This document shows positions 38,920 to 56,287 of a DNA stretch of 61,289 bases, one piece after another. Position 1 is the stretch's first letter. Each line of letters opens with the position of its first letter. Location: the IMG/VR virus record IMGVR_UViG_3300037297_000065, positions 1-61,289 of that record; one strand, 5' to 3'. The notes beneath the pieces are model-generated. The model was not told the DNA's origin, made no database searches, and worked only from the letters and a program-made list of their open reading frames with translations. Made by a program: the position numbers and the translations under genes. The DNA comes from a virus.

Positions 38920-39215
38920 AGGGCGGAACATTCAATACGATTCTAAATTGGCGCAAGGCATCAGATCGGGAACTTTTGTATGCTATAAAAGACCTGCGTC
39001 GATTTGATTATTATACAGATGAAATGCTTTTAATTCTTCATGAAATAGGATGGAATGAACGCTTTCTTTGCGCACCGCATGGAGATGATAACCCTGGAAA
39101 GTTGGCGTATGAAATCTATCAAGAACACACAAATTGTGACTTTATAAAGAAATATCGTTCGGTTGCATTGGGTAATATTAGTGTCTTTTTGAGGCAAACA
39201 GAGGTCACATCATGA
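38916..39215 (+). CDS. Hypothetical protein bracketed by 18-nt direct repeats
   Basis: 99-aa ORF; ends ..EVTS; CAGAGGTCACATCATGAA at both ends. Confidence 0.5.
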   Translation: MKGGTFNTILNWRKASDRELLYAIKDLRRFDYYTDEMLLILHEIGWNERFLCAPHGDDNPGKLAYEIYQEHTNCDFIKKYRSVALGNISVFLRQTEVTS

Positions 39216-40537
39216 AAATTTCCATTGTCGGGTTCGGTAAACTAGGCAGCGCGCTTGCCGCTGCTTTTGTGTCACGTCATGAGATCATAATTCCTATTGA
39301 AAACCCGGTTCGATACGCTTGGCCTTTTTGGGTGTATGCCTTTGATAAATCCTCTGATGCATTCACCGCCCCACTCCAATCTACCTACCCCGAACCGCAG
39401 GTAAGCGAATTATTGAGTGAAGCAAATGCGCGCGGCAATCTTGAACTCCACACGATGGACAACGCCGCCAAAATTACCGACACTAGTGTAACCTTTGTCA
39501 TCGTACCCACGCCATCGCTTTCTGATGGTAGTTTTGATACCAACTATTGCATTGAAGCGATGCTCTCCATCGGAGAAGCTATCAAAGACAAGGACGCCTA
39601 TCACCTCGTGGTGCTTTCGTCTACCGTCATGCCGAGCGACTGCGAGACTAAGATTATTCCCGCGCTTGAATTGGCAGCCGGGCGCAAGCTTGGGGATATG
39701 CTGGGTTTCTGTTATTCGCCGGCGTTTATTGCTCAGGGAAGCGTGGTAGATGACTTTCTTGATCCTGACTTCGTGCTGATTGGCGGAAACGAACTCGACG
39801 CCGAACGGCTCAAGATGATATACGAAGAGTTGAATCCTAGCTTTCCCGGCGAAGAGACGCAATACGCCTTGATGTCTATCTCCTCTGCCGAAGTAACTAA
39901 ACTCGCGCTTAATACCTACATCACGCTTAAAATCTCGTTCGCCAATACCCTCGCGGTGTTTTGCCACCGCACGCCGGGCGCGCATGTCGATGACGTAACC
40001 GGCGCGATGGGATTAGATAGCCGTGTTTCACCAAAGTTTTTTAAGGGTGCGACCGGGTACGGCGGGCCGTGTTTTCCGCGTGACGGACGCGCGATGATAA
40101 AGGCGCTTGACAAAGCCGAACTCTGGAACGGGTACGCGGGGATACCGTACATCAGCGTGAAGATTAATCAAGTGCATGTCGAATTCGTCGGGGAGTTGGC
40201 GCGGGAAGTGCTGCCGGAGGATGGCTCTGTTCTTGTCCTGGGTGCAGCCTATAAAGTCGGGACGCCCATTACCGAAGAAAGTTTCGGACTGGCGCTCGCT
40301 GACTACTTGGCGCTCGCCCGTGTTGAAGCCATGACCATTGACCCAACGCTTGACGGTTGGTCGGACTTCGACGCGCTCGTGAGGCAGGCCGACGTGATTG
40401 TTGTCGCGTTGCCCTACACGCATTTCCAGCATCTCCCCTATCAACCAGGGCAAACGATCATAGATTGTTGGCGCTCGCTTGACCCTAACGACCTTCCCTC
40501 CGGCGTGCGATATGTTCCACTGGGGGTAGGAAAATGA
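39212..40537 (+). CDS. Nucleotide-sugar dehydrogenase (UDP-glucose/GDP-mannose dehydrogenase family)
   Basis: VGFGKLGSALA Rossmann motif; GGPCFPRD catalytic-Cys motif; 441 aa. Confidence 0.7.
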   Translation: MKISIVGFGKLGSALAAAFVSRHEIIIPIENPVRYAWPFWVYAFDKSSDAFTAPLQSTYPEPQVSELLSEANARGNLELHTMDNAAKITDTSVTFVIVPTPSLSDGSFDTNYCIEAMLSIGEAIKDKDAYHLVVLSSTVMPSDCETKIIPALELAAGRKLGDMLGFCYSPAFIAQGSVVDDFLDPDFVLIGGNELDAERLKMIYEELNPSFPGEETQYALMSISSAEVTKLALNTYITLKISFANTLAVFCHRTPGAHVDDVTGAMGLDSRVSPKFFKGATGYGGPCFPRDGRAMIKALDKAELWNGYAGIPYISVKINQVHVEFVGELAREVLPEDGSVLVLGAAYKVGTPITEESFGLALADYLALARVEAMTIDPTLDGWSDFDALVRQADVIVVALPYTHFQHLPYQPGQTIIDCWRSLDPNDLPSGVRYVPLGVGK

Positions 40538-41175
40538 CATTACCCTTTGACCGCCCGGAGGCGCTCGCGCTCAACGAAGCGCGCATGAGTCGCGTCAAGA
40601 GCCTGGGCATCATTCAACCCGGTATGCGCGTGCTTGACATAGGTGCGGGCATAGGGCATTTGTCGAAATATCTGCTCGATTGGGGCTGCGAAGTCGTGGC
40701 ACTAGAGGGCAGGAAAACAAATGTCGAAGAGGCGCGGCGCAGGTATCCGGGGTTGGATATTCGGGTATGTGATGTTGAAAAAAGTTTTCCTGTATTTATC
40801 GTTGCATTTGATGTCGCCTTGATATTTGGGGCGCTCTACCACTTCAGAGACCCTGATAGTGCGTTTGGGCACATTCAATTTACGGCGCGCCCCTCGTTTA
40901 TTTTATTGAGCACGGTTGTCACTGATACTCAACAGTTGAAAAAGTTTCAGGTACTAGAAAACAATAACGTGGACCAAGCCCTTAACGGTTTGGGTTGTAG
41001 ACCATCACTATCATATATTGAAGAATATTTGATATATCGACTTGGCTATCACTCAATCGAAAATATATCACAACCCGAACACCCCGATTACCAATGGACA
41101 CCGCAAAATGATGGTCAGTGGCGACGTGACGGAAAGTTACTGAGGCGATTCTTTATATTCGAGAGGTCAAAATGA
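40534..41175 (+). CDS. Class I SAM-dependent methyltransferase
   Basis: Motif I VLDIGAGIGHLS; 213 aa. Confidence 0.7.
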   Translation: MTLPFDRPEALALNEARMSRVKSLGIIQPGMRVLDIGAGIGHLSKYLLDWGCEVVALEGRKTNVEEARRRYPGLDIRVCDVEKSFPVFIVAFDVALIFGALYHFRDPDSAFGHIQFTARPSFILLSTVVTDTQQLKKFQVLENNNVDQALNGLGCRPSLSYIEEYLIYRLGYHSIENISQPEHPDYQWTPQNDGQWRRDGKLLRRFFIFERSK

Positions 41176-41270
41176 GTAAATCACAATGGTGCGTGTTAAT
41201 GACTGTTGCGGTAATTGCCGCCGGTTTAGCCGTGTTGATAGATACGTTTTCGCGCCTAGCGGCGCAGTGA
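41172..41270 (+). CDS. Small TM peptide (32 aa)
   Basis: GAGAGGTCAAA SD, ATGA overlap; MSKSQWCVLMTVAVIAAGLAVLI. Confidence 0.35.
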   Translation: MSKSQWCVLMTVAVIAAGLAVLIDTFSRLAAQ

Positions 41271-41278
41271 GAGGCCAA

Positions 41279-42337
41279 ATGAAAATCTTAGTTGCGGGAG
41301 CCGGCGGTTTCATCGGCGGCCACCTAGTGGAGTTCTTGAAAGATAAAGGGCATTGGGTGCGCGGCGTTGACATCAAGCATCACGAACACCGCAAGGTACA
41401 AAACTGTGATGAGTTCGATCTCGCCGACCTGACGCACTACGGTGCGGCGGTCAATGCCTGCCGTGGTATCGACTGGGTGTTTCAGCTTGCCGCCGACATG
41501 GGCGGCATGGGCTACCTCGCCGAACACGACGCCGACATGATGCGTATCAATACGCGCATTAATTTGAATATGCTGGAAGCGGCGCGACAGTCTGGCGTTG
41601 AGCGGTATTTTTTCAGTTCATCGGCGTGCGTCTATCCCAACCGGGACGCCGAACACGCCGACCTCGCAGAGAGTGACGCCTACCCCGCCAACCCTCACAA
41701 CGAGTACGGCTGGGAAAAACTCTACACCGAACGCCTATGCGCCGTTTACAAGCGCGATTATGGTTTGGACACCCGCGCGGCGCGGTTCCATAACTGTTAT
41801 GGCGAATACGGCACATGGCGGGGCGGGCGCGAGAAAGCGCCGGCGGCGTTATGCCGGAAGGTTGCCACGAGTAAGTTAGCGCGCAATGACGGCGCGGCGG
41901 AGATTGATGTGTGGGGCGATGGGTCAGCGCTGCGGAGTTATATTCATGTGGATGATTTGATTGATGGAATATGGCGGCTGATGGGGATGAACGAGAGGGA
42001 TGTATATCAAGCAGCATCCCGATTGGGCGTACATATTACCGGTATAAGTATTGAATCTCGCGCAAAATTATACCAAGTTATGCTATCGCAACCTCTCAAC
42101 CTCGGCGATACTCACATGGTCACGGTTGACGAATTGGCCTATACGGTCGCTCGCACCGCCGGCGTTGAACTGGCGATTAATCATGTTGATGGCCCGGTGG
42201 GGGTACAGGCGCGTAATGCCAATATCGATTATGCGAAAGAATTACTGAACTGGGAGCCGCAAATTCAGCTTGAAGATGGAATTGCGCGGCTGTACCAATG
42301 GATAGAGGATGAGGTGCGTAATGCAAGTCTGGTTTGA
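41279..42337 (+). CDS. gme: GDP-mannose 3,5-epimerase-like SDR
   Basis: GAGGFIGGHL, LAADMGGMG, SSACVYP, GTWRGGREKAPAALCRK match remembered GME sequence block for block. Confidence 0.8.
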   Translation: MKILVAGAGGFIGGHLVEFLKDKGHWVRGVDIKHHEHRKVQNCDEFDLADLTHYGAAVNACRGIDWVFQLAADMGGMGYLAEHDADMMRINTRINLNMLEAARQSGVERYFFSSSACVYPNRDAEHADLAESDAYPANPHNEYGWEKLYTERLCAVYKRDYGLDTRAARFHNCYGEYGTWRGGREKAPAALCRKVATSKLARNDGAAEIDVWGDGSALRSYIHVDDLIDGIWRLMGMNERDVYQAASRLGVHITGISIESRAKLYQVMLSQPLNLGDTHMVTVDELAYTVARTAGVELAINHVDGPVGVQARNANIDYAKELLNWEPQIQLEDGIARLYQWIEDEVRNASLV

Positions 42338-42917
42338 CGTTGGCGCGCACATCGGGCAGTCTACCCTTGCCGCCGCGCGCGGCAACCCTGACCTGACCGT
42401 CTATGCCTTTGAACCAATCCCGGCGCTTGCTGCCGCGCTTCACGAAAAAGCGCCGGCGAATTATAAAGTGCAAAATCTTTCCGTCAGTGATACTAATGGT
42501 ACAGCAGAGTTTTACGTACACGGCGCGTCTGAGACCAGTTCCTTACTTCCATTCGATGCGCAGGGCAAAGCCGCCTGGGGCGCGGCTTTTGGCGATACCG
42601 AAACCATTCAAGTACCAACGATTCGACTTGATGCCTTTATGTATAAGCACCAGATAGCGGACGTTGACTATATCAAGGTTGACACGCAGGGCCACGACCT
42701 TGCGGTTGTGCGCGGCTTGGGTGAACGTATCAAAGATGTACGTGATATTCTGGTCGAGGTGCAATTGCAGCCACTCTATGTCGGCGCGAGCAAAAAAGAA
42801 GATGTGGTAAACTATATGAAAGCACGCGGTTTTTTGTTGGTGAGCGCGACGCCACAGACGCGCGGGAAAGAGGAGAATTTGTTATTTAGGAGAGGCGATG
42901 AAAGCCTACTTGTTTGA
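42321..42917 (+). CDS. FkbM-family methyltransferase
   Basis: FDVGAHIGQST..VYAFEP..N..VSDTNG pattern; start 42309 or 42321. Confidence 0.7.
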   Translation: MQVWFDVGAHIGQSTLAAARGNPDLTVYAFEPIPALAAALHEKAPANYKVQNLSVSDTNGTAEFYVHGASETSSLLPFDAQGKAAWGAAFGDTETIQVPTIRLDAFMYKHQIADVDYIKVDTQGHDLAVVRGLGERIKDVRDILVEVQLQPLYVGASKKEDVVNYMKARGFLLVSATPQTRGKEENLLFRRGDESLLV

Positions 42918-43620
42918 CGATCACACGGTTGAAATCGACCCACGCGCTGCCGAAATTGGCGGGTCATTTCAGGCACGTAAAAATGGACTACCCGCGGCGT
43001 GGGATGAAAAGACGCTTAAGTTTTTCTATGAACAAACGGCGAAGGTTGAATACCCAGTCGTGCTGGACGTGGGCGCAAACACCGGAAGCTTCACGTTGCT
43101 GGCAACGTTGCATCCGGGGATGAAGGTATGGGCGTTTGAGCCGAATCCGTTGGCGGCAGAAATTTTACACAATAACTGCGGAACAAACGATCTTTTAGAA
43201 GACCGCGTACAGATACAGGCGCATGCATTAGGCGAGCCGCATGACTATACTACTCTTTTCTGGAACCTTCATATACCAAAGAATAACCAAAGCGGCCTTG
43301 CCACACTCGCGCAAATCCCCGCGCGTTTTAAAGACTATACGACCGAAGTAACGATGCTGTTTACTATTGACGATTATAACCGCGATGGCGAGTGGTGTCA
43401 CTTCATCAAAATCGATACCGAGGGTTACGAGCTTTTCGTCTTGCGTGGCGGTGAGAAAACCATCAGATTTTACAGGCCTCAAATGCTTATTGAATACTAC
43501 GCGCCCAACACTCGCCAGTTTGGATACGAACCTAAAGCAATCACCGACTTACTTGAAAGCTGGGGCGCGAAGTGGGAGCAGGTCAGCAACGAGGATATAT
43601 GGGTGACGTGGGATGATTGA
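42898..43620 (+). CDS. FkbM-family methyltransferase
   Basis: VLDVGANTGSFT..VWAFEPNP pattern. Confidence 0.7.
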   Translation: MKAYLFDDHTVEIDPRAAEIGGSFQARKNGLPAAWDEKTLKFFYEQTAKVEYPVVLDVGANTGSFTLLATLHPGMKVWAFEPNPLAAEILHNNCGTNDLLEDRVQIQAHALGEPHDYTTLFWNLHIPKNNQSGLATLAQIPARFKDYTTEVTMLFTIDDYNRDGEWCHFIKIDTEGYELFVLRGGEKTIRFYRPQMLIEYYAPNTRQFGYEPKAITDLLESWGAKWEQVSNEDIWVTWDD

Positions 43621-44377
43621 CGACCTCCGCGCGTATTGGGATGCGCAACCCTGCAACGCCAACCACTCGAATGCCGAACCGAGCAGTTTGGAGTATTTCG
43701 AACAGGTTCGACGGCGTAAATATTTTGTAGAGCCGCATATCCCCGACTTCGCGCAGTTTCAGCGCTGGCGCGGGAAGCGCGTCCTTGACCTCGGCTGCGG
43801 ACTGGGTACAATGGCGGTCGATTTCGCACTTGCCGGCGCAGACGTAACCGCGCTGGATTTTTCATCCGAGTCGCTTTTTTTAGTAGCGCAGAATTTTCGC
43901 CGGCACGATCTGAACGGATTACTCGTTAACGCCAACATCGAAGAGCGTTTAGTCTATCTCTCCGGCTTCGATCTTGTCTTCGCATTCGGTGTCTTGCACC
44001 ATACTCCCCGCCCCGAACGCGCTATCGCCAACGCTTACCACTACCTAAAACCCGGCGGCGAATTCCGCCTCATGGTGTATCACAAATGGAGCACAAAGGC
44101 GGCGGCGGTAGCGTTGGGATTAGCGCGACCGGAGGCGCAGGCGGGATGTCCGCTCGCGCGCACGTATACGCGGCGCGGGGTACGGCGATTACTCAAGCGC
44201 GCGGGGTTTCGGGTTATTTCAATGCGGGTCGATCATATCTTCCCGTGGCGCATCGCGGACTATAAGGCGTATCGGTACGTCAAGGCGCGCCCTTGGCGAT
44301 GGCTACCAGCGCGCGCGTTCCGTTGGCTAGAAAAACATTTAGGCTGGCACCTCTTAGTAGTTGCCCGAAAGGATTGA
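43613..44377 (+). CDS. Class I SAM-dependent methyltransferase
   Basis: VLDLGCGLGTMAVDFA..DVTALDFS. Confidence 0.7.
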   Translation: MIDDLRAYWDAQPCNANHSNAEPSSLEYFEQVRRRKYFVEPHIPDFAQFQRWRGKRVLDLGCGLGTMAVDFALAGADVTALDFSSESLFLVAQNFRRHDLNGLLVNANIEERLVYLSGFDLVFAFGVLHHTPRPERAIANAYHYLKPGGEFRLMVYHKWSTKAAAVALGLARPEAQAGCPLARTYTRRGVRRLLKRAGFRVISMRVDHIFPWRIADYKAYRYVKARPWRWLPARAFRWLEKHLGWHLLVVARKD

Positions 44378-44379
44378 AC

Positions 44380-45162
44380 ATGCTGAGTATTTTCACGACC
44401 TGTAGACCATTTAACGACGAATCAGACGACGGGCGATATATTGCCGCCATTCAGCGGTATTGCCTACGCACACTCAAAGAAACCGGGCAAGAAGTTTTTT
44501 TGGTTTATGACGACGGCGGTGCATCCGAAGTCGCCGCCGAATTCAACTTCAAAACCCTCAAGCGCGTGCGCCGCCACGCCAGTGGTGCGCCGTCGCTGCG
44601 TTATGCGTTCAAGGCGGCAATTAAAGCGGCAACGCACGATGTTATCATGTACACGAATGCGGACATCATGTTTTTAGATGATTTGCTCCCCGCCGTCGAA
44701 GCACTTCAGTCACGTGGTTTTGAAAAATGGATGGCGACAGGTGGACGCTGGGATGTCAGTCCGTTGGGACTAAAACCGTGGCCGGTGGGCGAGACTGGCT
44801 GGCAGCGGATATTGCGCGACGAAATGCACCGTCAGAACCGCTTTCACGGCGGCGGCGCGCTCGATTATTTCATTTTCTCGCGTGGACTGTATGAAGACAT
44901 TCCGGCGTCGCTCGCTATCGGGGCGTGGAAATGGGACAACTGGATGATATGGCAAGCGCTGCAAAAGAATGCAGAGGTTATCGATACGAGTGCCGCAATT
45001 ACGGCTGTGCATCTTGACCATCCAAAAAAAGGCGCGAGAGAAAGCAGTGAAGCGGTCGCCGCCAACCATGCCGAATGTCAGGGTAAGGTCTGCACTACAA
45101 GCAACAGTCAATGGCGACTGACGAAAGAATTTGAATTTGTAAAACGCGACGAAACAGCATGA
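44380..45162 (+). CDS. Possible GT-A-fold glycosyltransferase
   Basis: 260 aa; IFTTCRPF..VFLVYDDGG..YTNADIMF (DxD-like); weak. Confidence 0.4.
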   Translation: MLSIFTTCRPFNDESDDGRYIAAIQRYCLRTLKETGQEVFLVYDDGGASEVAAEFNFKTLKRVRRHASGAPSLRYAFKAAIKAATHDVIMYTNADIMFLDDLLPAVEALQSRGFEKWMATGGRWDVSPLGLKPWPVGETGWQRILRDEMHRQNRFHGGGALDYFIFSRGLYEDIPASLAIGAWKWDNWMIWQALQKNAEVIDTSAAITAVHLDHPKKGARESSEAVAANHAECQGKVCTTSNSQWRLTKEFEFVKRDETA

Positions 45163-45199
45163 CAAAACGACGATCCTGGCGACGCGAGTTGGCGAAACG

Positions 45200-45436
45200 A
45201 TGGAAGCGATTTATTTGGAGGCCAAAGAAACGATGAATTCAACGACTGAGTGCGGGGTTGCATATATTCAATCAATCGACCTTTCTCCCGCTATCATTGA
45301 TATGTTTCTTGCCGACTACTGCGCGGAGAAAATCGGCATTGAAAAACAAATCATAGGATTAGAAACCCGTTACCGCGCACTATGCAAAATCATCAAGCGA
45401 CTCGAAGATGCGCGCAATACCACGGAGAATCAATGA
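45200..45436 (+). CDS. Hypothetical protein
   Basis: 78-aa ORF; stop overlaps next ATG. Confidence 0.35.
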   Translation: MEAIYLEAKETMNSTTECGVAYIQSIDLSPAIIDMFLADYCAEKIGIEKQIIGLETRYRALCKIIKRLEDARNTTENQ

Positions 45437-46212
45437 AACGCAAAGTGTTTGCTTCGGTATTTGCGACGATCATTCTTCTTGAGTGTTTATTGCGCGTGTT
45501 CGATCCCTACGGATACACTGCTTTACAGGCATCTCACTTCATTGTAAACGCCGGGTACATCACGCATCCAACACGCGGCTATGCGCTCGCTGACCGCTGT
45601 TACAAAAATTCACAGTGGGGGTATTGCGTCGAAAACGGCGCGCGCGTTGTGCCAGACACGAATTTAAACGCGCGTAAAACGCTTGTACTGGTGGGCGATA
45701 GCGTGTTGTTCGGTTGGGGTGTAAATAATGCGGATACTGCCGCCAACCTCATTGCTAAAGCGCTTCCCGATTGGCGCGTGATAAACGCCGCCGTGCCGGG
45801 ATATTCATCCGAGAATATCTATGCGACATTCGAGCAATACCGCGAAGTCGCCGACCTGACTGTATATCTCGTAACGCCAAACGATATTGAGGTAAGTTTT
45901 CCCCGCGACGTTTTTGAATACGCGCCTCGGTCAGGCGATATAATGACACTCGAATATTTGAGGATGATTTACGCATACGCGCAGCCGATTGAACATGCAC
46001 CGGTGCGCTATTTGAACGATCTATACAGGTTACATCAGGCGGGCGTGATTTTGGTCGGGTTCGAGGATAATCCAACGTTGCCCCACTATGCCTATAAAAT
46101 CTCACGGTACAGCGAGACGCTGTCGATGTTCGACGGACACCCATCGATAGAGGGGCAACGCGAGATCGCCGCGCAGATGATAGGGATTGTGCAGGCACTA
46201 ATTGCAACTTGA
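45433..46212 (+). CDS. Signal-anchored SGNH/GDSL hydrolase (glycan esterase/acyltransferase candidate)
   Basis: N-terminal TM; block I LVGDSVLFGWG, block III TPND, block V DGHPS. Confidence 0.6.
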   Translation: MKRKVFASVFATIILLECLLRVFDPYGYTALQASHFIVNAGYITHPTRGYALADRCYKNSQWGYCVENGARVVPDTNLNARKTLVLVGDSVLFGWGVNNADTAANLIAKALPDWRVINAAVPGYSSENIYATFEQYREVADLTVYLVTPNDIEVSFPRDVFEYAPRSGDIMTLEYLRMIYAYAQPIEHAPVRYLNDLYRLHQAGVILVGFEDNPTLPHYAYKISRYSETLSMFDGHPSIEGQREIAAQMIGIVQALIAT

Positions 46213-46330: not shown

Positions 46331-46364
46331 GCCACCGTTCATTAATTTGAACGGCGGCTTTTTT
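46331..46364 (+). terminator. Rho-independent terminator after first glycan block
   Basis: GCCACCGTTCA-TTAATT-TGAACGGCGGC then T6. Confidence 0.7.
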
Positions 46365-46379
46365 ATTTGGGGTTACCCG

Positions 46380-48010: not shown

Positions 48011-48014
48011 TTCA

Positions 48015-49454
48015 ATGGAAGAAAAAGCTTTCACCACAGAACAAATTAAAGAGCTTGCGGCGATTTTCAACGAAGTGCGAAAGAACACGCCGGCAAGTAC
48101 CACGCTTCCGGCGGGTGGCCAACTGCATGGACCGCTAACCGACAGTTCGGGTAACTGGTCGGTTTTGTCGGGCCTGGGCGTGCGTCCTGAAATGTGGTCG
48201 GCGATGACTCGCCCGCGTTCGTTGGTGCGCGCCCTGCAAGCACCGATGCGTAGTTTCAACTATAATGAACTGCTCGAAATTCAGACCGGCGTAACTCCCG
48301 GCAGTGGCACAAACGCAACCGGCTTTTGCGCCGATCCGCCCGACGTGACCGGCGATATGAAAGTCTGCCGGCAGAATATCGTCTTCGGCGACTATTACGG
48401 CAAGACCAAATTGAATTCCATTCCGCAGGTTGGGCAGGTGCGCAACTACGCAGATGTAACGCGCCAGATCATCAACGCGGGGCCGGGCGAAAATCCACTT
48501 ATCCCCGATTTTATGTACCGCCTTGACGATACGCAATCGGTGCTGCAATACAACCTATGGCTTTTTGGTCAAAGTGTTGAATTGACACTGGAGCGCGTCC
48601 TTATCCAGGGTAACAGCACATTAACCAGCGTCAACACGCAACTTGGGTTTATTTCTGAGTTTGACGGTCTTGACCGTCTTATCAAAACGGGGTATACCGA
48701 TGCCGTGACCAGCAAGGCGTGCTCGGCGGTTGATAGTTACGTGTTGGAGTTTGAGGCCGCGTTGGGAAATACCATTCCCGGCGACGCTGAGAGTCGATAC
48801 ATCCAAGACGCGCTGAATGATATGATCTATGCGCTCAACACACGCGCCGAAGACAACATGGTCAATGACTTCGTGTTGGCGGTTGTGATGCGCAAAGAAC
48901 TGTTCCGCCGTATTACCGATTACATCGCGTGCAACTATGCGAGTTCGCGATGTAGCGTCAACGGCACGAACACGCGCCTGAACATCGAGGGAAGCGATTT
49001 CATCCGGCTTCGTGACGGAATGCGAACCGGAAAATACATCCTGGTGGATGGTGTTGAATACCCGGTCATTTTCTCAACCGGCATCGATCTGGAAGGCACG
49101 GCGCAGGATACATTCCGCACGGATATCTATTTCGTGCCCATCAGTGGCAAGGGGCGTCCGCTCACATATCTTGAATACTTCCCGATGGACAACCCCTACG
49201 CAACGGAGGCGTCGAACTTCCCGGTCGAGGGACGACGCGCCGCGTACAATAACGGGCTGTGGATGGCCGGCGTTGAAGAAACCGCCATGTGCAACGAATA
49301 TCATTTCGCATCTCGAATGCGCTTGATTTTGACGCCGTTCCTGGCGGGCAAAATCACCGACATCACCTTCACCTACGATACCGACATGACACGCGATCCG
49401 TACAGTGGCGAGTCGATGTACGCGGATGGTGGCGTAAGCTACCGCACAAGCTAA
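48015..49454 (+). CDS. Major capsid protein
   Basis: 479 aa after scaffold; followed by strong terminator. Confidence 0.75.
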   Translation: MEEKAFTTEQIKELAAIFNEVRKNTPASTTLPAGGQLHGPLTDSSGNWSVLSGLGVRPEMWSAMTRPRSLVRALQAPMRSFNYNELLEIQTGVTPGSGTNATGFCADPPDVTGDMKVCRQNIVFGDYYGKTKLNSIPQVGQVRNYADVTRQIINAGPGENPLIPDFMYRLDDTQSVLQYNLWLFGQSVELTLERVLIQGNSTLTSVNTQLGFISEFDGLDRLIKTGYTDAVTSKACSAVDSYVLEFEAALGNTIPGDAESRYIQDALNDMIYALNTRAEDNMVNDFVLAVVMRKELFRRITDYIACNYASSRCSVNGTNTRLNIEGSDFIRLRDGMRTGKYILVDGVEYPVIFSTGIDLEGTAQDTFRTDIYFVPISGKGRPLTYLEYFPMDNPYATEASNFPVEGRRAAYNNGLWMAGVEETAMCNEYHFASRMRLILTPFLAGKITDITFTYDTDMTRDPYSGESMYADGGVSYRTS

Positions 49455-49463
49455 CGACCTTAA

Positions 49464-49532
49464 ACGAGGTGGGCTGTCCTGCTAGCGGACAAGTGGCGTG
49501 ACGGCCTCTCTCGCCCGCTCACCTCGTTTTTT
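49464..49532 (+). terminator. Long compound hairpin plus T6 after MCP
   Basis: ACGAGGTG...CACCTCGT closing helix, inner TGTCC/GGACA hairpin, then TTTTTT. Confidence 0.6.
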
Positions 49533-49540
49533 GAGAGACT

Positions 49541-49572
49541 TATGAGGCTATGAGGCTATGAGGCTATGAATG
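49541..49572 (+). repeat. Tandem 8-mer TATGAGGC x3.5 forming chained mini-ORFs
   Basis: Units at 49541, 49549, 49557 and partial at 49565; ATG AGG CTA TGA x3 overlapping by ATGA, ending on GT2 ATG 49566. Confidence 0.9.
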
Positions 49573-50672
49573 AAGTTTCAGTCGTAATCCCGGTTGGGCC
49601 GTCACACCTGAGCATCGTCGAACGCGCTCACGCCAGCGCAAAAAAACAAACCGTTCCTGTGGACGTGTTTGTCATCGTAGACAATGAAAAAAAAGGCCCG
49701 GCATGGGCGCGCAACCGGGGATTAGAAAAAGTACAAACGAGGTGGGTGATCTTTCTAGACGCCGATGACGAACTTGAGCCAAGGTTTGCTGAAGAGTGCC
49801 TACAGGCTGGCGCGTGGCCGAATCGATATGTCTATACTGATTGGTTTGAAGGCGAAACGCAGCACTGCCCACCGGATCATTGTTGGACTGGTGAAGCTTT
49901 TGAGCCGGGGGGCGGCTGGAAACGCGAAGGCGATAAAAAAGTTTGGCACGGCGGCGGCGCGTGGCATGTGGTTACAACGCTGCTCCCGGCGCACTGGGTA
50001 CGACACATTGACGGCTTCGATGAAGCCTACCGGCACGGCTCAGAGGACACGGCGTTTTATTGGAAACTGCAAGCGCTTGGGTGTTGCGGCTTACATCTTC
50101 CAAAACCTTTATTTCGATACCACAGCAACCCGAACTCTCGGTCATTGCGATGGATACAACACCCCGATTTTAAAGAGGCATCACGAACGATACAAGAGCG
50201 CTATGGAGGCCAAAAACTAATGGGATGCTGTAATAAGCCAGGGTCAACGGTCAAAACGCCGATGGGCGCAAAACAACCCGGTGACGTGTTGGTGCAGGTA
50301 CTTTGGAAAAATAAAACAAACTGGGAAGGTCCGATAACACAGCGGCTTTACCCGCGCACAAAATGGCCGCGTATGATTTGGGTAGACCCGGCAGATGCAC
50401 ACGCCGCGCCGAATCGAGTACGCAAAGTCGAAACACCCGCCCCGCCGCCGCTACCGGAGACACCAGCGTGGGAAGAAGCGTCGATAGAAGAAACAAAGCC
50501 AATTACGACGCTAACAGCGCTGGGCCACGCGATGGGTATAGGTGAGCGAAACAATCGCTATCGCCCGCAGATTGCGCTACCGGAAGCGTTGAACAATGAA
50601 ACCTTTATTCGGGTAGGGCAAAAACGCATTGACGATTTTTGGGAAGATCGATGGGGTATTGAAGATGATTGA
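49566..50672 (+). CDS. Family 2 glycosyltransferase with C-terminal extension
   Basis: VSVVIPVGPSH, FLDADDEL (DxD). Confidence 0.75.
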   Translation: MNEVSVVIPVGPSHLSIVERAHASAKKQTVPVDVFVIVDNEKKGPAWARNRGLEKVQTRWVIFLDADDELEPRFAEECLQAGAWPNRYVYTDWFEGETQHCPPDHCWTGEAFEPGGGWKREGDKKVWHGGGAWHVVTTLLPAHWVRHIDGFDEAYRHGSEDTAFYWKLQALGCCGLHLPKPLFRYHSNPNSRSLRWIQHPDFKEASRTIQERYGGQKLMGCCNKPGSTVKTPMGAKQPGDVLVQVLWKNKTNWEGPITQRLYPRTKWPRMIWVDPADAHAAPNRVRKVETPAPPPLPETPAWEEASIEETKPITTLTALGHAMGIGERNNRYRPQIALPEALNNETFIRVGQKRIDDFWEDRWGIEDD

Positions 50673-51444
50673 ACCGATCTTTGCCCGAACACACCACCAC
50701 TATGATAGTTATACGGATTATTGGCGGCTTGTTGAACTTGCCGATTATCCGATTTGCGCTGTGGGCGAGCTTGACCCGGATAGTGACAACACCTATATCA
50801 TCACACCGGTAAACGGCGAATGGTCGAATGGCTGGGAAAATCCGAAAGCTAAAATCGTTGCGTGGCTACTCGAATGGTACGACGAATGTCCGCAAATTTC
50901 CGGCGTGTCCGAATACTGGACTTCCGACCGCTGGTACGCGCAGCAACTTGGCGTGCGCTATGTGCCATTTGGTTCACACCCAAAATTAGTTGAGGCGACC
51001 TATACGCCGGCGCGCGCAAAGTGGGACGTCGCGTTACTCGCTTACCTTGCGCCGCAGCGCCGCAGCGCTATCATCACACAGCTTAAAGAACTTGGGTTGT
51101 CGGTTGCGCCTAACGGCTGGGGAGACACACGAAACGATGTTCTTGCGCATTCAAGAATGATGCTGCACATTCACCAACATACGCGCTTCCCGTGTGTACC
51201 CGTACAACGTTTCGCGCTTGCGGCCTGTGCCGGATTACCGCTTCTGAGTGAACGAATGCACGATGCATACCCAATGCAAGACGCCGATTTTGAAAGCGCA
51301 GCGTATAGCGCGCTAGCGCAACGCGCGAAAGGCCTACTTAACAACGCGGCGTTTCGCAGTACGGCGGCGGCACTTAGCAAGCGCTTGTGTTTTGAGTTTA
51401 ATTTTGGTGCAAATGTCAAGCGCGCGTTGGAGGGTAAGATATGA
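50665..51444 (+). CDS. CgeB/Glyco_trans_1_2-like glycosyltransferase module
   Basis: QRFALAACAGLPLLSE core; ATGATTGA overlap with GT2. Confidence 0.45.
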   Translation: MIEPIFARTHHHYDSYTDYWRLVELADYPICAVGELDPDSDNTYIITPVNGEWSNGWENPKAKIVAWLLEWYDECPQISGVSEYWTSDRWYAQQLGVRYVPFGSHPKLVEATYTPARAKWDVALLAYLAPQRRSAIITQLKELGLSVAPNGWGDTRNDVLAHSRMMLHIHQHTRFPCVPVQRFALAACAGLPLLSERMHDAYPMQDADFESAAYSALAQRAKGLLNNAAFRSTAAALSKRLCFEFNFGANVKRALEGKI

Positions 51445-52340
51445 ATATCTTAATGGCCTTCCATCACTTTCCAGTGAGTACCGGGCGATATGTTGCCGAT
51501 GGATTACGCCGACAAGGGCACGACGTGCGCACGATTGGTAAGCCGCGTGGCGTCGATACGGGCTGGGGTGATAGACGCTGTGATCCGCGCTATGTTCATC
51601 GATGCGCTGGTGATTATGATATGTATTGGCGCGACTGGCGGCCTGATTTTATTCTTGTAACCGATCCCTACACGGATAAGGCGTGGCGACACAAGCATTA
51701 TTCGGATGTACCACACTATTGCTATAACACGTGCAACAATGTCACCAATTTAGTACATCCAAGTTATGACCATTATTTCGTCGCGCACTATCATGCAAAA
51801 GCAATGCCGTATCGAGAAGACGGTGGGTATACCTGGGTGCCGAATGCTTATGATCCTGTCTGGCATACGCCGTCAAAAATTCCATTTGAACACCGCGCCT
51901 ACGACGTGGCTTTTTGCGGTTCGCTACACACTGACCGGCGTATGGTTATGGATGCGTGCAAAAGCGCCGGACTGAGCATCAAAATCGCGCACGGGCCGAT
52001 TTACCAGGAGTACACCGAAATTTACAATAACGCACGTTTCGCCGTCGTCACTTCAACGCACGGACACAGCGGCGCGAGTTACCGATTTTTCGAGAATGCT
52101 ATGCAGGGATGTATCGTGTTGTCGGGACCGTGTGAAGATCGGACATTATTCGATCCCCAACCGCAGGGATATTTGTGGTTCGAGACGCCGCAGCACGCGG
52201 CTCAGTTGGCAATGTATTACAAGCAAAATTCAGAAGAGGCTAAAAAGTTAATTCGTCAGTCGCAAGCTTGGGCAGCGCCGCATACTTGGGACGCGCGCGG
52301 ACAGATGATTGTGAACTGGCACAAGAGGCAAAAGCAATGA
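51441..52340 (+). CDS. CgeB/Glyco_trans_1_2-like glycosyltransferase
   Basis: YRFFENAMQGCIVLSGP core; ATGA overlaps. Confidence 0.5.
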   Translation: MNILMAFHHFPVSTGRYVADGLRRQGHDVRTIGKPRGVDTGWGDRRCDPRYVHRCAGDYDMYWRDWRPDFILVTDPYTDKAWRHKHYSDVPHYCYNTCNNVTNLVHPSYDHYFVAHYHAKAMPYREDGGYTWVPNAYDPVWHTPSKIPFEHRAYDVAFCGSLHTDRRMVMDACKSAGLSIKIAHGPIYQEYTEIYNNARFAVVTSTHGHSGASYRFFENAMQGCIVLSGPCEDRTLFDPQPQGYLWFETPQHAAQLAMYYKQNSEEAKKLIRQSQAWAAPHTWDARGQMIVNWHKRQKQ

Positions 52341-54037
52341 ATATTTCGATTGTATCCGGCACCTACAACCGGATTGAATATCTAAAAAACATGATGCAGT
52401 CTGCGCGAGCGTGTATTCCGCGTGGCCTTGACCACGAATTTGTAATCGTGGATGGCGGGTCAGACGACGGCAGTCTTGAATGGTTGCGCGAACAGACTGA
52501 TACCGTATTGATCGAAGACGGTAATTTGGTTGGCGCGATTTCAGCTTTTACGCGCGGCGCGTTCCGCGCGTGTGGCGATTATGTCGTGATGGCGAATGAT
52601 GATATTGCGTTTCATCCCGGTTCCATCACCGCCGCCCTGGTGCATTTGGAGAATAATCCTCGCTGTGGCGCTGTGGCGTTCCAAGATAATCGTCCGATTT
52701 ACGAGAACTATCCCAGAGACCACTATAAGACTCAAATGCAGTGCATTGAAACGGCAGATGGCGAAGAATGGACAATGCCTTATGCGCAGGTCGGTATGTT
52801 CCGAAAATGGCTCGGTGACGCCGTGGGGTGGTGGGGCGCAAATGATGAAATTATGAGTAAGGCGCGAAAATACGGTGGTGATAATTTTTTATCGGCGCGT
52901 ATTGTCGAAGAGGGATACACGATCGATGAACTCCCCACTGCGCGCTGTGAAGATCATGTCGCCAATGATGTGCTGAGGCTGGTAGACAATCAGAGTTACG
53001 GCGGCCAACACACCGATTCTAAGTTATTTCGCCGGCGGTTCCCTGATTGTGCAAAATTCCCTGCCGCGACGCGTATCAAGTCGCCGCAGTCCCGGCAATT
53101 GCGTATTCTGTATTTGCCGATTTATGAGCCTGGGCATTCGGTACAGCACGTAAATAAACGCGGGTTGCGCGAGGCGTTTCGGCATGTTGGGTTGGTATGG
53201 GAAATCGACTACCTGAATACCAAAAACATTTCAGCGCGCTTGCCGCAGATTATTCGACACTGGCAACCCGACCTGCTTTTTACGCAGTTGCACGATGCAC
53301 GAACGATCAACGCCGGGACTATCAAGGCGTGTAAGGCAGCTTATGAGGGCTTGCGTGTGGTGAACTGGCACGGCGACGCGACGCGACAGATTGCTCCATC
53401 CTATCAAGCGCTTATGCGAGAGATCGATTTGCAGTTGATCGTGGACGCCGCCGGGCTGAAGCAATACGAAACCGAAACCCACTATTGGCAGGTATCCTAT
53501 GAAGAGCCGGTGGGCGACTTACCTAATATGCCAGCTTATGACATTGTGTTTCTTGGCAACAACTACAATGCGCCACGCCAGGCGCTTTACGAGACGCTAC
53601 GCGGTACTAACGCCTCAGTAGGTATTTATGGACGCGGTTGGCAGCAGGCGGACGGACAAAATCTCTACGACTTTGCGCCGGGAGTCGCGCTTTACAAAAA
53701 CGCGCGGCTTGCCGTTGGAGATACTTTCCCTGGCACAAGCGCATTTGTAAGCAATCGCTTTTTTCAGGTCTTAGCGGTAGGCGGCGCGATGATGATGCAA
53801 CAAATCACGCCGGAATTCGAGCGCTATAATCCAGGCCTGATTGATGGCGAACACTATATCGGGTGGGATAATTTGGACGACTTGAAAGATAAGCTTACTC
53901 ATTGGCTCGATGGCCGGCGCGAAAGCCGGCGCACTGCTATTGCCAAAGCGGCACAGGAGATTGTCGTAAAGAATTATTCATTTGACGCCCAGGTAAAAAA
54001 GCTGTGGATTGATATTTTCCCGGAGGTCTTCAAATGA
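52337..54037 (+). CDS. Fusion of GT2 and CgeB-like glycosyltransferase domains
   Basis: ISIVSGTYNR, VIVDGGSDDGS, ANDDIAF (GT2); NRFFQVLAVGGAMMMQ..HY..W (CgeB-like). Confidence 0.7.
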   Translation: MNISIVSGTYNRIEYLKNMMQSARACIPRGLDHEFVIVDGGSDDGSLEWLREQTDTVLIEDGNLVGAISAFTRGAFRACGDYVVMANDDIAFHPGSITAALVHLENNPRCGAVAFQDNRPIYENYPRDHYKTQMQCIETADGEEWTMPYAQVGMFRKWLGDAVGWWGANDEIMSKARKYGGDNFLSARIVEEGYTIDELPTARCEDHVANDVLRLVDNQSYGGQHTDSKLFRRRFPDCAKFPAATRIKSPQSRQLRILYLPIYEPGHSVQHVNKRGLREAFRHVGLVWEIDYLNTKNISARLPQIIRHWQPDLLFTQLHDARTINAGTIKACKAAYEGLRVVNWHGDATRQIAPSYQALMREIDLQLIVDAAGLKQYETETHYWQVSYEEPVGDLPNMPAYDIVFLGNNYNAPRQALYETLRGTNASVGIYGRGWQQADGQNLYDFAPGVALYKNARLAVGDTFPGTSAFVSNRFFQVLAVGGAMMMQQITPEFERYNPGLIDGEHYIGWDNLDDLKDKLTHWLDGRRESRRTAIAKAAQEIVVKNYSFDAQVKKLWIDIFPEVFK

Positions 54038-54309
54038 ATAACGATTTTGATATTCTAAGCATTGCTACGTGGCGGCTCTCCTACATGCTCACGAGCGAAG
54101 CAGGGCCATATCGCATCTTTGAGCAACTACGCGCCATGTGTAATCCCGGCGGCTTGTTTGATTGCGTATTCTGTACATCGATATGGGTTGCTGCCATTTT
54201 GCTTATTCTATGGTTTTCGCCCTTTCGCCCGCTGGTACAGGTGCTGGCGATTTCAGGTGAGGCACTTAGAAAAGCGCACGATTCGGGGATAATGTATGCC
54301 GGGAGCTAA
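54034..54309 (+). CDS. DUF1360-like membrane protein
   Basis: ATWRLSYMLT..LFDCVFCTSIWVAAILL matches remembered DUF1360 pattern. Confidence 0.55.
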   Translation: MNNDFDILSIATWRLSYMLTSEAGPYRIFEQLRAMCNPGGLFDCVFCTSIWVAAILLILWFSPFRPLVQVLAISGEALRKAHDSGIMYAGS

Positions 54310-54862
54310 AGCGACTTTTACGCTGAATACGCCGATCGCGGGACAAGATTTTGTTGAATTCGCGCGCATTGCCCCCGATTTGTTTCGGCGCAAGGTTCCA
54401 TCGGCGGCGCGGCGCGTGACACGGTTTGCAAAAAGTGAGCTTAAAGCACTGACACCGGAACCCGCGAAGCATCCTATTCGGTGGACGCCTGCCAAACAGC
54501 AGAACAGGCCACCTAATACGCGCTTTGGATACTATAGCAAACAAAAGGCAGCTTATTTTGCTACTAATGGTTTTGGGCGTGGCATTCCGTCGCCTCGTAC
54601 CGGTACCCTTAAGGAAAGTTGGGAAGTACGCACTCGGATTGAATCGGACGCGAGCGGCGAGTTTACAATTGAAAATTCAGCGCCAGCCGCGCGATATGTC
54701 ATCGGGAAAGATCAACAGCGGTTTCACGCCATCACGGGATGGCCGAATATTACCGATGCGACATTTCGAAACATAGAAGACCGTATCGCTGAATTTGCAA
54801 GCGAAGAACTTGCACACTTGCACACATCGTTGATTGATGATTATTTGGAGCGATTCGGATGA
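54296..54862 (+). CDS. Head completion/neck protein candidate
   Basis: Position only, between capsid region and tail genes. Confidence 0.35.
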   Translation: MPGAKATFTLNTPIAGQDFVEFARIAPDLFRRKVPSAARRVTRFAKSELKALTPEPAKHPIRWTPAKQQNRPPNTRFGYYSKQKAAYFATNGFGRGIPSPRTGTLKESWEVRTRIESDASGEFTIENSAPAARYVIGKDQQRFHAITGWPNITDATFRNIEDRIAEFASEELAHLHTSLIDDYLERFG

Positions 54863-55788
54863 GCTACGCATCATTGGCAGATGTCATTCGAGAACTCAAA
54901 ACGCAGCGCGTGACGCAAGGCGCAGACGCTTATAGTGCAGAGGATGCTGCGTGGTTGTCGCGTTTTTTAGATCAGGTAACGCATCGTATCAATATCAAAG
55001 TGGCACCCCGCACGCGCCGACAATATTTTGAGCCGTGGAAGAAAAGTGAGACTTTCCCGATGCATAGCCGGTATGTGAATTCGTCTGAAGGTAGTCTTGA
55101 ATTACCTCATCCGCTGTTATCGCTTTCATCGCTCAAAGTCAACAATACGGAAGTGTCGAGTTCACTTTATGGTGTACAACCCTATGCGAGCACGGCTTAT
55201 GAAACGCCGTATCAATACCTTTGGCTGGCAGAAAACGCCATGTATAGTTATACGTGGTATACGGTTGTGTGTGCGAATTGTCCAACGAGTCGAACGCCAC
55301 AAGTCACGGTGGCCGATACCTGGGGTTATCATCGTGATTATACCAGCGCTTGGCAAAAGGCTGATGAATTACAGGCGGGTATCGCGGCGTCGGCAACAAC
55401 GCTCACCGTTGCCGATGTAGACGGCGCGGATTATTACGGTTTTTCGCCGCGTTTCAGCTATGGGCAACTCATTCAATTGACAACAGGCGGAACCGCGGAG
55501 TGGATGCGTATCACGGCGACCGATACAGCTACCAATACCCTAACGGTGCTACGAGAACAAAACGGCACAACTGCCATTGTGCATACGATAGATACACCAG
55601 ATATTGACGTGTTCTATCCAGAGGAAAGCATTAATCGCGTGACCGCGCGTCAGGCAGCGTTTCTTTACGCGCGGCGCGGCGCGTTTGAAGCCTCGCAGAG
55701 TGATGGTATGGGCGGACAAACGACTTATCCACAAGACCTATTAAACGAGCTAAACGGCGTATTGCAGGAGTATGTCAATGCCTGGTGA
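54859..55788 (+). CDS. Head-tail connector (gp6-like N-terminus) candidate
   Basis: MSYASLADVIRELK..DAAWLSRFLDQV resembles gp6-like connector N-termini. Confidence 0.4.
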   Translation: MSYASLADVIRELKTQRVTQGADAYSAEDAAWLSRFLDQVTHRINIKVAPRTRRQYFEPWKKSETFPMHSRYVNSSEGSLELPHPLLSLSSLKVNNTEVSSSLYGVQPYASTAYETPYQYLWLAENAMYSYTWYTVVCANCPTSRTPQVTVADTWGYHRDYTSAWQKADELQAGIAASATTLTVADVDGADYYGFSPRFSYGQLIQLTTGGTAEWMRITATDTATNTLTVLREQNGTTAIVHTIDTPDIDVFYPEESINRVTARQAAFLYARRGAFEASQSDGMGGQTTYPQDLLNELNGVLQEYVNAW

Positions 55789-56287
55789 ACGCAAAGATAT
55801 TCGACGGCGTATCGCGGCGGTTTTGCGCGATGAATTATCCGATGATGGCTGGGAAATTTTTCATTATTGTTTGGTTATTGGAGAGGGTCAAAAATATATT
55901 ACCATCCAAACTGGCGCGACGCGATATGAATTTTTAGACGCCAACTTTACAGCCGAGATATTGCAGGTGCGTGTGTTGGCAGTAACGGCCTATCGCACCG
56001 AGGGCATTGAGAGCGAAATTGAAGATATGCATGATGATATGATTGATGAAGTTCGTGTTGTACTTTTGAGTGATCTTGGCAATGGCGACGACTCGGGGCA
56101 ATTTTTAGTCAGTACGGACTATCCAACGCCGCCGACCTACCTTGACTATCGCGTAGGCGGTGTAACGCTTGTAAGCGACGAAGGTGCCGTAACAAGGCAA
56201 GAAAGCGGAACAAATCAGGTTTCGCTAGTAACAGAATTTGTTCTAGAGGTTCCGATTTTAACAGAAGTGGAATGTTCATTTCCATAG
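55772..56287 (+). CDS. Neck/tail terminator candidate
   Basis: Position immediately upstream of tail tube gene. Confidence 0.35.
   Translation: MSMPGERKDIRRRIAAVLRDELSDDGWEIFHYCLVIGEGQKYITIQTGATRYEFLDANFTAEILQVRVLAVTAYRTEGIESEIEDMHDDMIDEVRVVLLSDLGNGDDSGQFLVSTDYPTPPTYLDYRVGGVTLVSDEGAVTRQESGTNQVSLVTEFVLEVPILTEVECSFP

Follow-up and report, generated by a model that had tools for sequence, protein, structure and literature searches.

The DNA analyzed here, called the window throughout, is the whole of IMG/VR virus record IMGVR_UViG_3300037297_000065 (61,289 nucleotides), and our subject is a cassette of sugar genes at 49566-54309 that lies between the major capsid protein (MCP) gene and the head-tail connector genes. 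In order, the cassette carries a gene for a glycosyltransferase (GT) of family GT2 that we call GT2a, two genes called Cge1 and Cge2, a gene in which a second GT2 domain is fused to a third Cge module (GT2b-Cge3), and a gene for a small membrane protein of the DUF1360 type. An earlier note, made by reading the sequence, had described these open reading frames (ORFs) as chained by ATGA and ATGATTGA overlaps, and this is how the junctions read: ATGATTGA, ATGA, ATGA and ATGA, with overlaps of 4-8 nt within the chain, followed by a 14-nt overlap with the next gene. The GC content of the cassette is that of its neighbors, that is, compositionally native, and a scan of the gap between the MCP gene and GT2a for a promoter-like site found none. 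Family matches point to four firm GT modules and a probable fifth, Cge1, where the note had counted five.

GT2a (49566..50672, + strand) matched PF00535 at 43.3 bits (5e-11; Pfam gathering cut-off 23.3 bits) and carries the motifs VSVVIPVG and LDADDE, in agreement with the GT2 gene that had been proposed to follow the capsid gene. A GT-A domain takes up residues 1-213 of the protein and is followed by a disordered loop, then by a small beta domain, and last by a proline-rich linker and a C-terminal helix. The L-D-A-D-D stretch at residues 64-68 (D65, D67, D68) and E160-D161 are invariant in 25 aligned homologues, and the Cys-Cys pair CC221-222 in the disordered loop is invariant as well. An AF2 model of GT2a had a pLDDT of 79.7, with values above 90 across most of residues 1-80 and 140-210. 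When the model was compared with solved folds using Foldseek, TarP, WrtF, RmlT, TarS and K4CP were returned (E 4e-10 to 1e-8), TarP being the best match. Among viral models, the best matches were GT2s of uncultured phages, and the Che8 glycosyltransferase (Q855A2) was found at rank 20 (E 3.5e-8). The Pfam score, a DxD-type motif with an acidic catalytic region, and the GT-A fold of the model all identify GT2a as a GT2/GT-A enzyme.

The following gene, Cge1 (50665..51444, + strand; QRFALAACAGLPLL), encodes a very divergent module of the Glyco_trans_1_2 type (the C-terminal half of a GT-B enzyme). It scored 16.5 bits against PF13524 (E 0.0086), below the cut-off of 25 bits; the family was matched in only 3 of 16 Cge1 orthologues, weakly, and a Cge1 family profile found no match among PDB sequences. 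Local hhalign comparisons, however, connected the Cge1 family with Cge3 (E 3e-5, 73% probability) and with Cge2 (1e-4), and because of these profile-profile links Cge1 is probably a distant Glyco_trans_1_2 relative. In L004, L006, L040 and P0140, four of the related loci cited here by label, Cge1 is fused to GT2a. Cge2 (51441..52340, + strand; YRFFENAMQGCIVL) is a Glyco_trans_1_2 module of the CgeB/YkvP type that passes PF13524 at 37.7 bits (2.4e-9), and PF13524 is carried by every one of its 26 homologues, all of them unnamed; it was found in part of the lineage only, with two copies in L003. The fusion gene (52337..54037, + strand), with VDGGSDDGS, ANDDIAF and NRFFQVLAVGGAMM, matched both PF00535 (51.4 bits, 1.5e-13) and PF13524 (40.4 bits, 3.6e-10) within one ORF, just as had been read from its motifs. 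Residues D39-G-G-S-x-D44, D88-D89 and G181-D182 of GT2b are conserved at 90% or more in 20 homologues, and its weak sequence matches are to DPMS, ArnC and a GtrB-like PHROG. Searches of PDB sequences with GT2a, Cge2 and the fusion gave marginal generic matches only.

The three Cge modules had been called paralogous and CgeB-like. Two of them, Cge2 and Cge3, belong to PF13524 by score, and the relationship among the three stands at the level of the superfamily: profile comparison of Cge2 with Cge3 gave a probability of 97% (E 1e-11), and Cge1 is tied to both by the links above. Pairwise BLASTP among Cge1, Cge2 and Cge3 gave nothing significant, and a recent duplication was rejected on this ground. 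By these comparisons the modules are ancient, very divergent relatives that share only a superfamily.

The last gene of the cassette (54034..54309, + strand) encodes a 91-residue protein that matched PF07098 at 29.4 bits (8.3e-7; cut-off 21 bits), which agrees with the DUF1360-like membrane protein of the earlier note. Its KD19 hydropathy reaches a maximum of 2.39 over residues 38-73, and the hydrophobic stretch opens with an invariant CxxC. The DUF1360 gene accompanies the GT genes in every clade and is detectable even in the most distant one. It lies directly 3' of GT2a in L009, L023, L026 and L039, and downstream of it in 65 of 80 GT2a-bearing viral contigs; tblastn of the protein against deposited phages gave no match. 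Conceivably, the CC pair of GT2a and the CxxC of the DUF1360 protein make up a shared metal site by which GT2a is held at the membrane, and a membrane-proximal acceptor would then be favored. Human DPM1, which has no transmembrane segment and is anchored by DPM3, a protein of roughly 90 residues, offers an analogy for such tethering.

Upstream of the cassette, the gene at 48015..49454 (+ strand, 479 residues) has no Pfam or PHROG match. Its AF2 model (pLDDT 82.9, pTM 0.81) matched only phage capsids of the HK97 fold among the Foldseek PDB top 50, including Sf14, P23-45 and Bas63 (E about 1e-9, probability 1.0). Because the model matches nothing but such capsids, the gene was identified as that of an HK97-fold MCP, as had been supposed. 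Gene order supports this assignment: the terminase large subunit gene (TerL, starting at 34840) and the portal gene (starting at 36185) precede it, and protease-like and scaffold-like genes lie directly upstream. The MCP ends in a low-confidence (flexible) tail in which a G-G-x-S/T motif, found in 67 of 68 distinct MCPs, lies about four residues from the C-terminus. The C-terminus in HK97-fold shells generally faces outward, and the G-G-x-S/T tail is a candidate glycan acceptor site.

The terminator that had been placed after the MCP gene is present as a long G+C-rich hairpin followed by TTTTTT (49459..49535, + strand; -33.7 kcal/mol, z -2.2), a predicted terminator or attenuator, and comparable hairpins follow the MCP stop codon in L001, L003, L004, L005, L007, L012 and L025. 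Three tandem copies of the 8-mer TATGAGGC come next (49541..49564, + strand, read from the sequence) and put three GAGG Shine-Dalgarno-like boxes, in three different frames, immediately 5' of the GT2a start codon; L001, a relative with 98% identity, has only two degenerate copies. On the other side of the cassette, the head genes resume as predicted with a first head-tail connector or tail-completion gene (54296..54862, + strand), identified by a weak match to HK97 gp10-like PF04883 (E 0.0015). This gene overlaps the DUF1360 gene by the 14 nt mentioned above, its homologues come after the cassette in relatives, and it is followed by tail tube-like, chaperone-like and tape-measure genes.

We analyzed the conservation of this arrangement in a forward test, in which the window proteins were mapped onto 40 related loci, 39 of them with DNA downstream of the MCP gene. 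The results showed that all 39 loci have sugar genes downstream of the MCP gene, and that GT2a is within about 2.3 kb of the MCP stop codon in 36 of the 39, including clades at 27-28% MCP identity. In the exceptions, L034, L036 and L037, what lies downstream of the MCP gene is a Polysacc_synt_2 dehydratase together with an RmlD-like reductase. A GT2 then follows in L036 and L037, the L034 sequence having ended before that point, and both a formyltransferase and a PIG-L deacetylase are encoded in L036 as well. A common frame is kept in relatives with as little as about 32% MCP identity: the MCP gene is followed by GT2a and Cge1, then comes a variable stretch measuring about 1.5-4 kb, and beyond it lie the GT2b/Cge3 fusion, the DUF1360 gene and the connector genes. 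By this synteny, the layout of the cassette is a lineage trait, conserved over a large phage lineage. The MCP has 275 homologues, all unnamed, in a clustered protein set, and a search with an MCP profile put the family at 642 clusters or more (50% identity), of which 352 had an E-value of 1e-30 or below. Homologues of MCP, GT2a and Cge2 in a set of 5.8 billion proteins were all unnamed metagenomic proteins, with no named cellular relative. Among 50,697 deposited phage genomes, megablast of positions 46000-56000 and tblastn of the MCP found nothing similar, and tblastn of GT2a and the fusion against the same number of phage records gave only short generic matches to the GT2 N-terminus, none of them in a mycobacteriophage.

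In a reciprocal test, we started from 80 viral contigs with a GT2a-like gene, 6 of which had too little upstream DNA, leaving 74 that could be evaluated. A member of the MCP family was found upstream on the same strand within 10 kb in 70 of these (within 300 bp in 20 of the 70), and 4 had none. The linkage of GT2a to the MCP gene holds even with up to 9 kb of other sugar genes between them. We then compared pairwise identities among the proteins. Those of MCP and GT2a were correlated (Spearman 0.81, Mantel p 0.001) as were those of MCP and portal (0.80, p 0.001), whereas MCP and the Cge3 domain gave 0.18 (p 0.09). As judged by these correlations, GT2a is inherited with the capsid and the distal modules are exchanged.

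The variable stretch was scanned in 51 ORFs from 14 loci. We found 13 Methyltransf_24 proteins, 5 O-methyltransferases, 3 rhamnosyl O-methyltransferase-like proteins and 3 SDR epimerases or dehydratases, together with 2 hexapeptide acyltransferases, 2 PIG-L deacetylases, 2 FkbM methyltransferases, 1 GT17 and 1 sulfotransferase. By its family content, the stretch resembles the tailoring islands of O-antigen loci. Modules are also joined in different ways across relatives, as GT2a-Cge1, GT2b-Cge3, GT4-GT2-GT2a and GT-methyltransferase fusions, and in many contigs of the reciprocal test GT2a is the last domain of a GT4-GT2-GT2a protein of 900-1,200 residues. Such fusions of GT4 (Glycos_transf_1), GT2 and a GT2a-like domain, with lengths of 860-986 residues, are found in L071 (4150-7107), L067 (4933-7785), L088 (4345-7299) and L104 (4936-7515). 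DUF1360 follows the triple fusion in L071, L067 and L088 and was not detected in L104; a GT10 fucosyltransferase-like gene lies just 5' of the fusion in L088. In distant clades, a protein of about 500 residues with BNR/Asp-box repeats, a sialidase-like beta-propeller signature that stayed below the cut-off, is encoded two genes past DUF1360 (L030, 14674-16191; L088, 9155-10645). Judging from the repeats, this is possibly a sugar-binding or sugar-cleaving virion protein adjoining the cassette.

The window has a second sugar block upstream of the capsid genes (39212..46212, + strand), and Pfam and TIGR family matches bear out the description of it as a flanking block of sugar genes, here for sugar supply and tailoring. 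It encodes a nucleotide-sugar dehydrogenase (TIGR03026, 188.6 bits against a cut-off of 189.8), an SDR epimerase/reductase, two FkbM and two other S-adenosylmethionine-dependent methyltransferases, a sixth, weak GT2-like ORF (44293-45162) and, at the end of the block, a GDSL/SGNH hydrolase-like protein with an N-terminal signal-anchor, MKRKVFASVFATIILLECLL (45382-46212). The block is also present in L001, whereas in more distant relatives equivalents of its genes lie inside the downstream cassette instead. Taken together, the two blocks make up 11.7 kb of a 61,162-bp genome, the 19% that had been estimated. Hydropathy analysis found no transmembrane segment in any of the four GT proteins, and transmembrane-like segments number three at most in every ORF of the genome. 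Because none exceeds this number, the genome encodes neither a flippase nor a polymerase, and neither a ligase nor an oligosaccharyltransferase (proteins of the Wzx, Wzy, WaaL or oligosaccharyltransferase type).

The window represents a complete phage genome: a 127-bp terminal direct repeat occupies 1-127 and 61163-61289 with identical ends, which leaves a unique length of 61,162 bp in a circular or terminally redundant molecule. A Pfam scan of the larger ORFs found a tyrosine integrase, an actin-like segregation protein and a Gp3-like recombination directionality factor. The genome also encodes a dCTP deaminase-like protein, a macro domain protein and a DnaB helicase, and has two tRNAs. The phage is complete and uncultivated, and it is temperate because an integrase gene is present. 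Its host is probably bacterial, as indicated by the DnaB helicase, a lipoprotein with a lipobox and the hairpin terminators. The only host labels among relatives come from six bins of metagenome-assembled genomes (three Chloroflexota, one Bathyarchaeia, one Thiotrichales and one Gammaproteobacteria) and were given no weight; the labeled contigs longer than a few kb resemble whole phage genomes.

Beyond about 21.5 kb every plausible gene lies on the + strand, and the minus strand beneath the cassette has only short ORFs of at most 92 residues. In the head region, the protease-like gene upstream of the scaffold (46347-47318) has a DUF3140 insert in the window, and at the same position L003 (2070-4244) encodes a 724-residue protein in which protease-like ends are combined with a 2',5' RNA ligase (LigT-like) domain and the scaffold. 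A DNA methyltransferase-like gene with a DPPY motif seems to be split into a 60-residue ORF (31522-31704) and a 395-residue ORF (31795-32982) with about 90 bases between them, which could reflect a frameshift, an intervening element or an assembly error. A protein with Effector-associated domain 8 (EAD8; Pfam 1e-12) is encoded after the tail genes at 5621-6229. In the early region, which is transcribed leftward, we found a pentapeptide-repeat protein (13628-14065, - strand; PDB matches down to 5.6e-10) and a match to the type II hammerhead ribozyme (20348-20410, - strand; Rfam RF02276, 41 bits against a gathering score of 37, E 6e-5).

What, then, does the cassette do? It behaves as a core part of the head module and not as an accessory moron, because it is universal in the lineage, its GT2a is vertically inherited, it is translationally coupled and compositionally native, and the scan found no promoter-like site. 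The soluble GTs and the lack of export machinery fit, therefore, a stepwise glycosylation of an acceptor in the cytoplasm. The conserved catalytic motifs of GT2a and GT2b, the fusions, by which the modules are functionally linked, and the sugar-tailoring enzymes of the variable stretch point the same way, as do the precedents in mycobacteriophages, archaeal magroviruses and the CgeB system described further on. We propose that the cassette, a late-operon part of the head module in a large, globally sampled and uncultivated lineage of temperate tailed phages, carries out such stepwise cytoplasmic glycosylation of a virion protein, probably the MCP, and we put the probability of this reading at roughly 0.5. 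The upstream block would supply and tailor nucleotide sugars, and the soluble GT-A enzyme GT2a would add the first sugar to a virion structural protein in the cytoplasm. The likeliest acceptor would be the MCP, perhaps at its flexible C-terminal G-G-x-S/T tail. Cge1, Cge2 and Cge3, as GT-B-type modules, may then lengthen the chain together with GT2b, and methyltransferases may cap the sugars. Relatives have a swappable tailoring island between the GT2a-Cge1 and the GT2b/Cge3-DUF1360 flanks, and the glycan would therefore vary from phage to phage, like a capsid O-antigen. Our analysis shows the gene identities, folds, catalytic motifs, synteny and co-divergence and the lack of export machinery; from these we infer a virion protein as acceptor, its identity, the succession of the enzymes and the part played by DUF1360. 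The capsid decoration suggested in the earlier note thus receives real but indirect support, namely from position, the co-divergence of GT2a and MCP, translational coupling, the soluble GTs and the lack of export genes; the genes do not show the acceptor protein itself. These data suggest that phages of this lineage routinely sugar-coat their particles.

A bolder version of the same proposal is that the lineage treats glycosylation as a core step of head morphogenesis, in which a capsid-co-evolving GT2a and a small CxxC membrane protein prime the MCP, while GTs and methyl-, acyl- and sulfotransferases from an exchangeable island assemble a "capsid O-antigen" peculiar to each phage, which would replace protein decoration and be under diversifying selection. 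We offer this version tentatively, and consider it rather doubtful as a whole.

Several observations weigh against glycosylation of the capsid in the cytoplasm. A glycan on any protein is deduced here from genes alone, and the enzymes have no sequence homology to those of mycobacteriophages. The closest solved folds to GT2a are those of wall-teichoic-acid GTs (TarP, which is prophage-encoded, and TarS) and of O-antigen GTs. The DUF1360 membrane protein is co-conserved with GT2a and equals it in conservation, a point not made in the earlier note, and a purely cytoplasmic capsid acceptor does not need one. The signal-anchored GDSL/SGNH protein suggests, by its N-terminus, an extracytoplasmic step, and in a temperate phage lysogenic conversion is conceivable. 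The C-terminal motif of the MCP is present in all clades whatever their cassette, so that it is not attributable to glycosylation; as a discriminator the motif was rejected, both for this reason and because sugar genes are also present in the three loci where GT2a was not detected. Finally, AT-hook-like (RGRP) tails were seen at the C-terminus of about 10 of 96 distinct GT2a orthologues, for example KRRGRPKSNG, RAGRPKKAN, QRGRPRKQG and KRKPGRPKKA in the GT2a-type ORFs of L028, L033, L145 and L190, and a DNA-binding HhH_5 domain (Pfam 4e-10) ends the triple-fusion ORF of L088. These tails and the HhH domain are sequence features hinting at DNA contact.

Of the alternatives, the one that survives best is modification of the host envelope, in which the GTs, tethered to the membrane by DUF1360, decorate a lipid-linked or membrane-proximal host glycopolymer such as a teichoic-acid-like polymer, an S-layer glycan precursor or a polyprenyl-phosphate sugar. 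This could stop progeny from re-adsorbing to debris, or exclude other phages, as TarP or Gtr systems do. Besides the integrase and the signal-anchored SGNH hydrolase, the structural matches of GT2a point this way, headed by TarP, a prophage-encoded GT that transfers N-acetylglucosamine to wall teichoic acid, with RmlT and TarS; so do the weak matches of GT2b to DPMS, ArnC and the GtrB-like PHROG, and the membrane partner of GT2a, which recalls the DPM1/DPM3 pair. The authors of a study on pelagiphages interpret GT islands of phages in the same way (PMC7029224). But the fold matches of GT2a are a generic GT-A similarity, with a TM-score of about 0.4 at 15% identity. Conversion genes, moreover, are normally sporadic morons with a promoter of their own, whereas the cassette is universal, translationally coupled and co-divergent with the MCP in the way the portal is. 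Gtr- and TarP-type conversion is marked either by a membrane GT or GT-C enzyme with a flippase or by sporadic distribution with separate regulation, and we found neither; the genome lacks a GT-C enzyme, a flippase and any other membrane protein of the polytopic kind. We consider envelope modification unlikely, at about one chance in five.

A second alternative keeps the glycan on the virion but moves it from the MCP to another protein, for which the tail tube, a connector, a decoration protein or a tail fiber would be candidates, and takes adjacency to the MCP gene as operon history. Both capsid and tail tube subunits are modified in mycobacteriophages (PMC11600133), connector and tail genes are coupled to the cassette on its downstream side, and the conserved C-terminal motif of the MCP is not tied specifically to the cassette. 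On the other hand, the linkage of GT2a to the MCP gene survives the insertion of up to 9 kb of sugar genes. The co-divergence of GT2a with the MCP argues in the same direction weakly, as any vertically inherited structural gene would co-diverge too. We regard a non-MCP acceptor as rather improbable. The last alternative is that the phage DNA, not long before it is packaged, receives an oligosaccharide on a modified base and thereby evades restriction. It would fit the AT-hook-like tails, the HhH_5 domain and the dCTP deaminase-like gene, and post-replicative DNA glycosylation does act late, up to packaging, and can be poly-glycosyl (PMC13326640), but it is very improbable, given that the tail of GT2a in the window is acidic and not AT-hook-like, that the many O-methyl-, acyl- and sulfotransferases of the island are typical of surface glycans and not of known DNA sugars, and that the GT genes lie in the head module and not in a nucleotide-metabolism module. 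Neither Pfam, run on 20 larger ORFs, nor PDB phmmer, run on 26 further unannotated ORFs, turned up a thymidylate-synthase-like hydroxylase or hydroxymethylase, a dNMP kinase, a dCTPase or a TET/JBP enzyme, although sensitivity was limited and small or very divergent enzymes could escape.

To our knowledge, phage-encoded glycosylation of virions has been shown experimentally only in a few actinobacteriophages, where it looks accessory. Glycosylation of phage virions is thus already known, and what is new here is its integration into the head operon, the lineage-wide conservation, and the co-divergence of GT2a with the capsid, together with a conserved frame around a variable tailoring island, the CgeB-type and fused GT modules and an obligatory small membrane partner. 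The sugar genes lie in the head operon and go with the capsid gene in inheritance, and essentially all sampled members of the lineage possess them, although it comprises hundreds of diverged capsid clusters, none of which has a relative among the 50,697 deposited phage genomes. If the acceptor is indeed the capsid, glycan coats would be common and structurally integrated in environmental phages, and they would bear on particle stability, surface adsorption, and recognition by immune systems or grazers. GT genes listed as "auxiliary metabolic" in metagenomes would then need a different reading, and the cassette would amount to a compact, export-free, modular toolkit for protein glycosylation. 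The conserved frame with its variable middle offers a clear experimental handle.

We compared the cassette with known systems. Chlorovirus PBCV-1 glycosylates its capsid protein Vp54 with virus-encoded cytoplasmic GTs, including GT-methyltransferase fusions; it makes its own nucleotide sugars, and strain-variable methylated glycans are placed on the major capsid protein without host endoplasmic reticulum or export machinery. Multi-domain GTs of its own, among them GT-methyltransferase fusions, and nucleotide sugars of its own are shared with the present lineage. However, PBCV-1 belongs to the eukaryotic giant viruses, its capsid is of the double jelly-roll type, its glycans are atypical and N-linked, its enzymes are unrelated, and its GT genes are scattered and not gathered in a head operon. 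Serotype conversion of the TarP/Gtr kind shares with the window a temperate phage with a GT2/GT-A enzyme, TarP being the best structural match of GT2a and a GtrB-like PHROG a weak match of GT2b. The genes are accessory in those systems, whereas the cassette is a core, capsid-linked segment of an operon, and Gtr needs the GtrA flippase and a GT-C enzyme, with transmembrane helices in GtrB itself, none of which is present here.

The likeness to CgeB that had been claimed for the Cge modules goes as far as PF13524, a Pfam family which we take to contain CgeB: Cge2 and Cge3 pass its cut-off and Cge1 fails it, the Cge modules are too dissimilar for BLAST to connect them, the homologues recovered include no named relative of CgeB, and the window has no CgeA homologue. 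In Bacillus subtilis, CgeB appears to glycosylate the hexameric spore-crust protein CgeA in vitro, with an activity described as weak, and it was proposed to move a sugar from a UDP-sugar to Thr112 of the assembled shell protein, after which other GTs extend the chain (PMC13577073). For the archaeal magroviruses (Aoguangviridae), which are uncultivated HK97-type viruses, capsid glycosylation was deduced from the adjacency of a GT gene to the MCP gene (PMC11706807, citing Zhou 2023). The same kind of adjacency is read here, in another virus group and host domain; the description there is of a single GT, and does not mention a conserved multi-GT frame, a membrane partner or an analysis of co-divergence.

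The closest functional parallel is found in mycobacteriophages (Che8 of cluster F1 and Corndog-type phages of cluster O). Phage-encoded GTs and an O-methyltransferase are reported to modify their capsid and tail tube proteins (PMC11600133, PMC11256854 and PMC12619734, citing Freeman et al. 2023, PMID 37329881), the glycans are said to be on the C-termini of capsid and tail tube subunits (PMC11256854, PMC11600133, PMC12619734), and in Che8 the GT genes stand apart from the capsid gene, close to the genome's 3' end (PMC11256854). Both systems have several phage GTs with one or more O-methyltransferases, the enzymes are soluble and cytoplasmic in both, and the Che8 GT (Q855A2) shares the GT-A fold with GT2a. 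Glycosylation has been shown by experiment in the mycobacteriophages and is proposed from the genes in the window, and the Che8 and Corndog enzymes have no detectable sequence homology to the cassette. Unlike the mycobacteriophage genes, the cassette lies between the MCP and connector genes, is conserved over the whole MCP family, and has in addition GT-B modules of the CgeB type, fused GTs, a co-conserved membrane protein and an island of variable tailoring genes.

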